A stretch of 64,000 nucleotides of DNA from Clostridia bacterium DTU065 (GTDB lineage: Bacteria > Bacillota > DTU065), in the NCBI GenBank assembly GCA_001512545.1, contig LFSI01000083.1:6759-70758 (forward strand), given 5' to 3'. Positions 9,401-11,195 of this stretch are shown one piece after another (the first letter of the stretch is position 1; each line of letters opens with the position of its first letter). A program made the position numbers and the translations under genes. Below the pieces are notes generated by a model that did not search any database, had not been told where the DNA came from, and saw nothing but the letters and a program-made list of their open reading frames with translations.

Positions 9401-11195
9401 CCGAGGAGGATGTCCTCGAAAAACTCGCTCCGCTTCTCAAACAGAAACATAACGGCGTCCTGATCAGAGGTTGTGAGATGCTGAGTATTTCAGGTGAGAC
9501 AGCACCGGGAAATGGCCGCGATTTTGAGTTTGGGGGATATGCCGTAAAGCTAGAGCCCGACCTCAAGATCCTCCCTGCAAAATCCAGCATTGAAGCCTTT
9601 AAGAGGGATATCAAGAACCTAACAACCAGAAGCAGAGTAGGTTACAGCGTTCGTTTTAGCGCGGTAGAGATCACAAGGAGAATCAGACAGTGGCACGAGA
9701 GCTTTGGTTTTTGCACAGATCGCAAGCTTGGCAGGTATTTGGACAGCTATGTCAGAGAGAGGGTTTACCTCTTGCTTTTGAAAAAGTTTGACAAAGCTGG
9801 CAAGAAAGAAGTCTACCAGCGCTTTATGCTGGGTTATCCAACGCTTGAAGGAGTTACCATTCCTTCAACGCGTCCGGTCGGAGAGCCGTATGCGGGGAAA
9901 CCCGCACGTACGGTTCGGGGAGCGGGAGGCTGATCCCGACTCCACACAACACCAGGCGGAAGAGCACTTAAATTCGTGCGCCCGTAAAAATAGCTGTTGC
10001 GCTATTTGCGGCGTGCTGCAGAATGCTGCAGGAGCAGTCAAGAGACGCCATCCTCTTGTGGACACCAAGCTTACCTGGAAGGGAAACCGGAAGGGGACAA
10101 CAGCATGCTTGGCAAGGCAGGTATCGAGGTTATTCTTCGAGTGCATGCCCTGTCCAGAGATGTACTTTATACGGTCAAGGCTAGACTGCCTGAAACCCAG
10201 GTCGGAGGCCTAAAGTGGGGCTCACACCTTTTGGTGTGATGGAATCACGACGATGTCTTGGAATTTGACATCGGGCTAGATGGTGGGATTCCTCTCGGCT
10301 CGAAAGAGCAAAAGACCGAACGGGTGACCTAAGTAAGGTACGAAAACGTCTGTAGTGCGCTAAACGGGGATTGCCTAAGTCCGAACGCTTAAGTCGCTGG
10401 CTCAAGCTATGGTTTTAGGACCTGAATATCGGATATGGCAACGGAGTTCCCGTAGTAGTCCGAGGCGGTAGGACGGCAAACCGTCCGAACAAGGCATCAT
10501 GCCTCTAGGGAAAGCCCGCCACATGGCGAAGGGGAACAGATTGTCGCATTTCCATAGCATCGGGGTAGGTTAAGTACCTGTCGAGCTCCGAATGATCTGG
10601 AAATGTACAGCTAAAGCGCTGTGTACATCAGCACACAAGTGCTGGACTGATACCCTTTTTACTTAGCAGCTGGACTGTGCTTTAGCCTAGGTTGGACAAT
10701 CGGAGAGCCGTATACATCGAAAGGTGTACGTACGGTTCGGGGGAGGGAAGGAGCAAACCTATTGGGGCAACTCAAAAAGGCGGCTTTTTCCTATCCTACT
10801 ACTCGTCAGTACGCTTGGATATTAGAAGAATTGACTCCATTAAGTCCGGTAATGAAATCATCGGCAACCGCACGAGAGTGAAGGTTGTAAAGAACAAGGT
10901 AGCTCCACCGTTTTTGGTGGCAGAGTTTGATATCATCTACGGAACGGGTATATCTAAGGAAGGCTGCATCTTGGATGTGGCGTCCGATCTGGGAATCGTT
11001 TCCAAGAGCGGCTCGTGGTTTTCCTACGGCGATATGAGACTCGGTCAGGGCAGGGAGAATGCCAAAGAATTTTTGCGGCAGAACCAAGAATTATGCAACG
11101 AGATCGAGAGCAAAGTAAGAGAGAAGGCTTCGCTTCCAGGATACCACGCTCCAGCAGAAGATGATGATGGGGGAAAGGATTATCTAGATGAATGA
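6483..11195 (+). CDS. recA: recombinase RecA, split gene: join(6483..6780,7567..7647,8360..8607,9946..9975,10800..11195)
   Basis: The joined exons are 1053 nt, giving 350 aa plus a stop, in frame across all junctions. Walker [10 protein letters not shown]. Junction contexts are [49 protein letters not shown]...[32 protein letters not shown], colinear with bacterial RecA. recX overlaps the stop. Confidence 0.9.
6781..7566 (+). mobile_element. group II intron 1 (ORF-less, 786 nt)
   Basis: 5' gtacg. EBS1 candidate cgtgttt (7127-7133) in a hairpin loop pairs with the exon-1 end gaacacg. gtagtag (7349-7355) and gcgaagggg (7416-7424) core motifs. D5 acgccgcatgcggggaaactcgcacgtgcggtgt (7461-7494, CGC triad, GAAA loop, 2-nt bulge). 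3' end is ttacctatcactat. Confidence 0.85.
7648..8359 (+). mobile_element. group II intron 2 (ORF-less, 712 nt), paralogue of intron 1
   Basis: 5' gtgcg. EBS1 candidate cttgttt (7974-7980) pairs with the exon-2 end gaacaag. gcgaagggg (8204-8212). D5 at 8278-8311 differs from intron 1 only by a shifted wobble pair. Identical 3' end ttacctatcactat. Confidence 0.85.
8608..9945 (+). mobile_element. group II intron 3 (1338 nt, carries degenerate IEP ORF)
   Basis: 5' gtgcg. EBS1 candidate ctccgg (8800-8805) in the loop of the agatc/gatct hairpin pairs with the exon-3 end ccggag. gtagtag (8928-8934) and gcgaaggg (8944-8951). D5 gagccgtatgcggggaaacccgcacgtacggttc (9883-9916, AGC triad). D6 ggag-cggga-loop-tcccg-A-ctcc with bulged A at 9939. 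Ends ...ac. Confidence 0.9.
8992..9933 (+). CDS. group II intron-encoded protein, degenerate RT (no YADD) with retained maturase/X domain
   Basis: GTG start with an aaggagg SD. The maturase-like block is [17 protein letters not shown]...[15 protein letters not shown]...[19 protein letters not shown] remnants are TYRPLGG and [29 protein letters not shown] sits where YADD is expected. There is no En/D domain. The C-terminus [17 protein letters not shown] is D5 read as protein. Confidence 0.75.
   Translation: MTLRKQEWRSLADAGRLYETMASFEFLQKCAKALKINEKTAATLSEALQQRTYRPLGGNEVDTLLLKCVLDALSALIKEDSGLDLYRTLRTLDLATVQIQVEKLDFACLKKELFKLLKEAVPDEEFVDLVWKGAKIAEEDVLEKLAPLLKQKHNGVLIRGCEMLSISGETAPGNGRDFEFGGYAVKLEPDLKILPAKSSIEAFKRDIKNLTTRSRVGYSVRFSAVEITRRIRQWHESFGFCTDRKLGRYLDSYVRERVYLLLLKKFDKAGKKEVYQRFMLGYPTLEGVTIPSTRPVGEPYAGKPARTVRGAGG
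9976..10799 (+). mobile_element. group II intron 4 (ORF-less, 824 nt), paralogue of intron 3
   Basis: 5' gtgcg. EBS1 candidate gaattt (10261-10266) in the loop of the cgatgtc/gacatcg hairpin pairs with the exon-4 end aaattc. gtagtag (10452-10458) and gcgaagggg (10526-10534). Short D4 remnant closed by attgtc/gacaat. D5 gagccgtatacatcgaaaggtgtacgtacggttc (10705-10738). Ends cctatcctac. Confidence 0.85.

Follow-up and report, generated by a model that had tools for sequence, protein, structure and literature searches.

Micro-exons between group II introns have been documented in organelles (PMC2817487, in the portion of the paper available to us). According to the same portion, exon c of nad5 in seed-plant mitochondria has 22 nt, and it must join exon d before it is correctly joined to exon b (Elina & Brown, 2010; PMC2817487). 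In the bacterium Trichodesmium erythraeum, the available passages describe dnaN with four introns lacking an open reading frame (ORF), and nrdJ with three (Pfreundt et al., 2014; PMC4143802). The sections seen of a review state that bacterial group II introns mostly avoid housekeeping genes, and that bacteria rarely have ORF-less or degenerate forms, which do not last long (Zimmerly and Semper, 2015; PMC4424553). Here we describe recA of Clostridia bacterium DTU065, an uncultured anaerobic-digester bacterium. The gene lies in a stretch of 64,000 nt (contig LFSI01000083.1 of assembly GCA_001512545.1, positions 6,759 to 70,758 of the forward strand), which is called the window and whose first letter is position 1. 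It occupies 6483–11195 and consists of five exons cut by four group II introns. The fourth exon, at 9946–9975, is a micro-exon. We conclude with high confidence that it is an internal, constitutively included exon of the sole recA of this bacterium, located between two unrelated, immobile group II introns that are 30 bp apart. The mechanism is ordinary group II splicing. The unusual part is the setting, namely an essential bacterial gene, introns 30 nt apart, RNA support from four studies, and micro-exons that recur within a small family. In a literature search that did not extend to subscription journals and supplements, we found no publication on this lineage, and none that describes a micro-exon flanked by group II introns in a bacterium.

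The boundaries were set from the RecA reading frame, the 5' GUGYG motif and the 3' ends of matches to the Rfam model of domains V and VI (RF00029). The five joined exons have 1053 nt, are in frame and stop-free, and encode a RecA of 350 residues, and the introns account for 78% of the gene (3660 of 4713 nt). RF00029 gave four matches of 56–70 bits (gathering score 40), each of which stops at the base preceding an exon. According to the Pfam RecA profile, exon 3 reaches profile position 200 and exon 5 starts at 211, and the ten positions between them correspond to exon 4. Together the five exons cover profile positions 1–262, so that a full-length RecA results after splicing. The sequence before exon 4 is ...CGACUCCAC, and the sequence after it is GUGCGCC. 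The domain V/VI segments fold with z-scores of −6.1 (intron 3) and −7.3 (intron 4), and a bulged domain VI adenosine is seen in both folds (A9939 and A10793, respectively). The Rfam D1–D4 models had no match in intron 3 or intron 4 at E ≤ 1, and therefore neither intron is assigned to a class. An earlier note, made from the sequence letters, had placed a micro-exon between two introns at 9946–9975 and an 81-nt exon at 7567–7647 between introns 1 and 2. The former agrees to the base with the frame, the RF00029 ends and the RNA joints described below, and the latter with its in-frame join and its RecA profile match.

The ten residues of exon 4 align to residues 208–217 of Escherichia coli RecA. 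The classical L2 loop comprises residues 195–209. The earlier note had called the ten codons L2-loop codons; they represent the C-terminal edge of L2 and the conserved motif after it, but not the whole loop. By the note's own standard, an alignment in which the ten residues proved dispensable would have refuted it. This outcome did not occur: in an alignment of 12 RecAs, eight of the ten columns are invariant. In the same alignment, the conservation of the sequence windows around the insertion sites is in the 87th percentile for intron 3, the 84th for intron 4, the 51st for intron 1 and the 70th for intron 2. Thus, the proposal that all four sites lie in the most conserved RecA blocks is only partly true: the sites of introns 3 and 4 have clearly above-average conservation, whereas the sites of introns 1 and 2 are average.

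Six metatranscriptome runs from five studies hold 91–96% of the sequence words. Four of these runs (X15, X17, X18 and X19), one per study, were analysed as Logan contigs (k = 31). The joint 6780>7567, left by removal of intron 1, and the joint 7647>8360, left by removal of intron 2, were present in all four runs. The joint of intron 4 was also present in all four, as 9974>10799 with one ambiguous base, which equals 9975>10800. The joint of intron 3 (8607>9946) was present in three of the four runs, that is, not in X15. Introns 3 and 4 have GT..AC ends at these RNA joints. A 307-nt contig of X18 consists of exon 3 (248 nt), exon 4 (30 nt) and 29 nt of exon 5, with no mismatch in the listed piece of exon 3, and a 359-nt contig of X17 consists of exons 2, 3 and 4, with no mismatch in the two listed pieces. 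Both junctions of exon 4 are used in vivo. They fall exactly at 9946 and 9975, as the earlier note had supposed, and no alternative boundaries were seen.

Lariat signatures were also observed. In X15 and X17 (two of the four runs), intron 2 is represented by a circular RNA contig of 705 nt with the joint 8351>7648, in which a single T replaces A8352, the bulged adenosine of its domain VI. We read the circle with its T as read-through of a lariat, and it is direct evidence of in vivo branching by an ORF-less intron. As for intron 4, a contig of X15 (one of the four runs) reaches 10792 and then continues with T+GUGCGCC, which is eight letters only. This loose end is a weak lariat signature, corresponding to the bulged A10793 joined to the intron's own 5' end. 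No lariat joint of intron 3 was listed in the four runs. The mean depth of the intron 3 contigs is above that of the exon contigs in X15, X18 and X17, and about equal to it in X19.

The relatives give further evidence on the boundaries. All five other genomes of the family (G001–G005; the present genome is G000) also have a split recA, in which Rfam domain V/VI matches end at each inferred 3' splice site. Six insertion sites, a to f, occur in total across the six genomes. In G002–G005, the codons of exon 4 are fused to exon 5 (...AAGTTC|TACGC). This is a natural empty site, and the boundaries of intron 4 are therefore fixed. G001 keeps the 30-nt exon with four synonymous changes. In G002, an independent micro-exon of 31 nt is located between the site-d intron and intron 3 (L029, G002:C45, oriented coordinates 4139–4169); the site-d intron has the 5' end GUGUG and lies inside the Glu codon of ...IRE|K.... 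The spliced coding sequences of all six genomes are in frame and stop-free, and their exons are under purifying selection. Between G000 and G001, introns 3 and 4 differ by about 29%, and the whole recA locus, exons and introns together, has 74% identity. This divergence fits introns that have long been inherited vertically.

The genome is a metagenome-assembled genome (MAG) of 2.2 Mb in 95 contigs, with a completeness of 93%. A PF00154 search of the MAG found the recA pieces of the window and no second recA; one further match, on contig C72, is sub-threshold (20.4 bits versus the cut-off of 27). All the sampled words of the intron-bearing gene (100%) are present in 14 DNA runs from eight studies. 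These runs are anaerobic-digester, sludge and other metagenomes, and they are possible sources only. Moreover, two independent metagenome contigs hold exon 4 with both flanking introns. Thus, the gene layout is not an assembly artefact.

Exon 4 carries complementarity to intron 4. The exon-binding site EBS1 of intron 4, GAAUUU (10261–10266), complements the intron-binding site IBS1, AAAUUC (9970–9975), which is the last six bases of exon 4. GAAUUU occurs only once in intron 4 and is located in the 9-nt loop of a 7-bp hairpin (10251–10273; fold z-score −2.7). In G001, the exon reads AAGUUC and the EBS1 loop is unchanged, so that an A-U pair of IBS1 becomes G.U; the stem of the hairpin is retained there with two wobble pairs. 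A scan of metagenomes with a degenerate pattern of exon 4 plus GUGCG, made to find further lineages with an intron at this position, gave two contigs, of the G000 and G001 types only, and therefore the covariation test of this EBS1 consists of two sequences. A candidate EBS2, AAGUG (10213–10217), would pair with CACUU (9965–9969), which adjoins IBS1. In G001 the candidate pair is shifted by one position (AGUGC with GCACU), and the EBS2–IBS2 assignment is tentative. The expectation of the earlier note that exon 4 supplies the whole IBS1 of intron 4 is supported by the matching hairpin loop, and for an IBS2 within exon 4 there is this tentative candidate.

Intron 3 has complementarity to exon 3. 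Its EBS1, CUCCGG (8800–8805), pairs with the IBS1 CCGGAG (8602–8607) at the last six bases of exon 3, and its EBS2, UGCCAAA (8769–8775), pairs with the IBS2 UUUGGCA (8593–8599), at exon 3 positions −15 to −9. G004 has a compensatory change here: the exon carries a synonymous TTT>TTC substitution and the EBS2 of intron 3 carries A>G, so that the U-A pair becomes C-G. The 3' exon begins with A at the intron 3 site in all six genomes, and likewise at the first nrdJ site and the parA site in each genome that was examined. This fits a one-base contact of intron 3 with its 3' exon, presumably at A9946. The recognition segments on exon 4 (A9946 versus 9965–9975) would not overlap, and therefore pairing alone imposes no splicing order.

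The following course of splicing is proposed. The two introns sit 30 bp apart in DNA coding for the end of the DNA-binding loop L2, and this spacing would create the micro-exon. Intron 4 would pair through its EBS1 loop, and probably also through an EBS2, with the last 6–11 nt of exon 4. Intron 3 would hold exon 3 through EBS1 and EBS2, and from exon 4 it would need only the first nucleotide(s) for the 3' splice site. Introns 3 and 4 would then leave by branching, as lariats, and exons 3, 4 and 5 would be ligated to give the full-length RecA mRNA. The maturase of intron 3 may help in trans, and the two splicing events are probably independent of each other.

Several observations weigh against this course and against constitutive inclusion. 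The contig path from exon 3 through exon 4 to exon 5 is the assembler's inference and not one molecule; with 31-letter words and a 30-nt exon, no word spans both junctions. Contigs lose rare variants, and low-level skipping is compatible with them for this reason. The lariat signal of intron 4 is an eight-letter loose end in a single run, its EBS2 has only 5 bp in each of two sequences, and the same joints could in principle come from a co-resident strain whose recA allele lacks the introns. In X15, a high-depth contig has exon 2|exon 3 spliced, followed by unspliced intron 3 and exon 4, and the exon 3|exon 4 joint is absent. Intron 3 may be removed slowly or incompletely, or its excised or unspliced RNA, which carries the maturase ORF, may be stable. 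The pattern of X15 is also compatible with an obligatory order in which intron 4 must go first. In such an order, the folded domain I of intron 4 on exon 4 and the core of intron 3 would interfere with each other across 30 nt, and removal of intron 3 first would be slow or error-prone. X15 has the exon 4|exon 5 joint, and in the same run intron 3 remains between spliced exon 2|exon 3 and exon 4; moreover, exon c of nad5 is a precedent in which the downstream joining comes first (PMC2817487, passages compared). However, nad5 is trans-spliced, and in those passages the mis-splicing is attributed to a duplex of exon a and intron 3, not to exon size alone (PMC2817487). The separate recognition segments on exon 4 also argue against a forced order. 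Furthermore, contig depths, which were not used to rank spliced and unspliced forms, cannot rank them, and as no word crosses exon 4, retention of intron 3 with removal of intron 4 is indistinguishable from the reverse. An obligatory order is regarded as rather unlikely.

Regulated skipping of exon 4 has a much lower probability. Here exon 3 would be joined to exon 5, and a RecA without ten residues at the end of L2 would be an inactive or dominant-negative isoform. The product would be in frame by arithmetic, as both introns are in phase 0 and the exon has 30 nt, and tandem group I introns of phage Twort reportedly provide a case of exon skipping. However, no 8607>10800 joint was listed in any of the four RNA runs at min_share 1, the residues that would be lost are the highly conserved ones described above, and the first nucleotides of the two 3' exons differ (A versus U). 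In group II splicing, the 5' exon stays on the EBS of its own intron, and the 3' site is chosen by domain VI of that intron. Joining of exon 3 to exon 5 is therefore mechanistically disfavoured. Least probable of all is a dead or unspliced gene, with the junctions of the RNA libraries derived from DNA or from RNA of an intron-less strain. Such libraries can contain DNA, and presence there does not show transcription. Nevertheless, the exon pieces listed for the junction contigs differ from the window in 0 or 1 letters, and the lariat-type junctions at the bulged A of introns 2 and 4 cannot derive from DNA. The presence of intron 3 in all six genomes of the family, the lack of a second recA and the purifying selection on the exons also speak against a dead gene. 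In the six family genomes, no intron-less DNA of recA was found. We prefer constitutive inclusion of exon 4 by ordinary splicing of two separate introns.

Table 1. Exons, introns and intron ORF of the split recA in the window, and recA insertion sites in the six genomes of the family (site positions are RecA residues)
Feature	Position	Strand	Description
recA exon 1	6483..6780	+	298 nt; ends in codon phase 1; Pfam RecA 1–90
Intron 1	6781..7566	+	786 nt, ORF-less, GUACG...AU; RF00029 56.3 bits, ending at 7566; RF02004 49.8 bits
recA exon 2	7567..7647	+	81 nt; RecA profile 91–118
Intron 2	7648..8359	+	712 nt, ORF-less; RF00029 57.8 bits; branch A 8352
recA exon 3	8360..8607	+	248 nt; Pfam RecA 119–200; last 15 nt contain IBS2 and IBS1 of intron 3
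Intron 3	8608..9945	+	1338 nt, GUGCG...AC; RF00029 69.6 bits, E 1e-12, ending at 9945; domain V 9883–9916; bulged domain VI A 9939
Intron 3 ORF	8992..9933	+	313 aa; stop codon 12 nt before exon 4; Pfam GIIM E 2.7e-6
recA exon 4 (micro-exon)	9946..9975	+	30 nt, 10 codons, phase 0 on both sides
Intron 4	9976..10799	+	824 nt, ORF-less, GUGCG...AC; RF00029 62.2 bits, E 7e-11, ending at 10799; domain V 10705–10738; branch A 10793
recA exon 5	10800..11195	+	396 nt including stop codon; Pfam RecA 211–262 plus RecA_C
Site a	99/100		window intron 1; G000, G001
Site b	126/127		window intron 2; all but G003
Site c	169/170		no window intron; G002–G005
Site d	within codon 199		no window intron; G002 only
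Site e	209/210		window intron 3; six of six genomes
Site f	219/220		window intron 4; G000, G001 only

Introns 3 and 4 lack the reverse transcriptase (RT) of a mobile group II retroelement, as intron 4 is ORF-less and only the maturase (X/thumb) domain, GIIM, is detectable in the ORF of intron 3. The Pfam domain RVT_1 had no match in this ORF at E ≤ 0.01. Residues 174–267 of the ORF align to the thumb of chain 7uim_D (E = 0.0025), and TIGR04416 is matched only at positions 260–352. A scan of genome contigs for wider relatives of the ORF gave four loci, all of the same family, and within the G000 genome the GIIM domain is found in this ORF only. No PF00078 (RVT_1) match was found at E ≤ 0.01 in G000, a MAG of 93% completeness in which repeats may be unassembled, and no RVT_1 was found in G002–G005; MAGs often lose repeated mobile elements. 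G001 has three RVT_1 matches, two of which are on contigs that also carry lower-scoring domain V matches. Mobile RT-bearing introns may be present in the family and poorly assembled, and the absence of RT from G000 is provisional.

The G000 genome has six domain V matches, of which four are in recA, one in nrdJ and one in parA/soj. The two outside recA are at C35:45121-45182(-) and C6:14582-14643(-). The class II ribonucleotide reductase gene is split by a group II intron at NSPTLM|NAG, and parA/soj is split at the Walker A codons (KGGVG|KST). An ORF of about 250 aa without a GIIM match is present in the reductase intron. Both sites are also occupied in the relatives examined (L033–L041), and nrdJ of some relatives contains a second intron, before PLLPYEACNLGS. 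In G002, G004 and G005, lower-scoring domain V matches lie no more than about 350 nt from a contig end.

According to the RecA tree, G002–G005 form a clade (97/97), and G000 and G001 are not resolved as sisters. Intron 4 may equally well have been gained once in genus g1 or lost once in the other clade. A paralogue of intron 4 in its own genome was considered and rejected, as the BLAST match covers only domain V (81% over about 45 nt). In relatives beyond G001, intron 4 matched only pieces of 29–49 nt, two of them over domain V. Outside the family, recA is uninterrupted in all six outgroup loci examined. In an evenly drawn phylum sample of 301 genomes, 295 have a RecA match. The six family genomes have RecA in 3–4 separate pieces, and in all but three of the other 289 genomes the best RecA match has an E-value of 3e-125 or lower, in keeping with a full-length gene. 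One exception (G106) has a contig break in recA. Another (G265, L049) has an in-frame insertion within a 628-aa ORF, which looks like an intein. In the third (G072, L048), recA is interrupted between GN and PETTPGG, two codons upstream of site e, by about 980 nt that match no Rfam model; judged from the ends of this insertion, our guess is a group I intron. The insertions of G072 and G265 are in the same recA region, and the L2-coding DNA therefore attracts several kinds of intervening element.

A gene for a LigT-like 2',5'-RNA-ligase / 2H-phosphoesterase (5888–6421) is located directly upstream of recA. A link between this gene and the introns was rejected, since the same order is found beside an uninterrupted recA in three of the six outgroup loci and is ordinary synteny. 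An inverted repeat, GAAC-AAGT-GTTC, is present at 6453–6464, about 20 nt upstream of the recA start. It resembles the SOS (LexA/DinR) box of Bacillota. If it is a real SOS box, RecA could be induced in the SOS response only by way of four splicing events.

The sole recA of a bacterium thus needs four splicing events, and a ten-codon exon is spliced in digesters of four separate studies. The locus is a natural bacterial system for questions that have been confined to organelles, such as the minimum spacing of group II ribozymes, forced splicing order and the avoidance of skipping. It is also a warning for annotation: gene callers will give recA fragments here and miss the 30-nt exon. It is possible, although we hold this view tentatively and rate its chances at slightly less than even, that the family is a free-living bacterial lineage with organelle-type introns. 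Such introns would be immobile, mostly ORF-less and vertically inherited, fixed in active-site codons of the essential genes recA, nrdJ and parA and served by one RT-less maturase, and their density in recA would be high enough that micro-exons arose at least twice (the 30-nt exon of genus g1 and the 31-nt exon of G002). If this is true, the family would be a tractable model, in a prokaryote, of how a cell without a spliceosome tolerates genes that are rich in introns and have tiny exons.

Among known systems, Geobacillus kaustophilus is similar in that it has a group II intron in recA of a member of Bacillota. Chee and Takami are said to have described there, in 2005, one intron only, which encodes a full RT-type protein. 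The genes of Trichodesmium are similar in that essential bacterial genes contain several group II introns, mostly ORF-less, with splicing observed in vivo (by split reads in that case), and in that a maturase encoded elsewhere is proposed or shown to be required; nrdJ is a host gene in both (PMC4143802 and PMC4649490, passages compared). In contrast to that cyanobacterium, as those passages describe it, the present family belongs to an uncultured Bacillota lineage, its sole maturase-like ORF has no detectable RT, and its intron sites are common to the whole family. Exon sizes are not stated in the passages compared (PMC4143802, PMC4649490). Exon c of nad5, as portrayed in the available portion of the paper (PMC2817487), is a micro-exon of a conserved gene flanked by group II introns, and it serves as the 3' exon of one intron and the 5' exon (IBS) of the next, as recA exon 4 does. 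Splicing order and mis-splicing are live questions in both. The two differ in that no mis-spliced recA product was seen in the contigs, and in that the nad5 introns, according to the same portion, are fragmented and trans-splicing, in an organelle with nuclear splicing factors, whereas recA, in a free-living bacterium, has intact introns that splice in cis.

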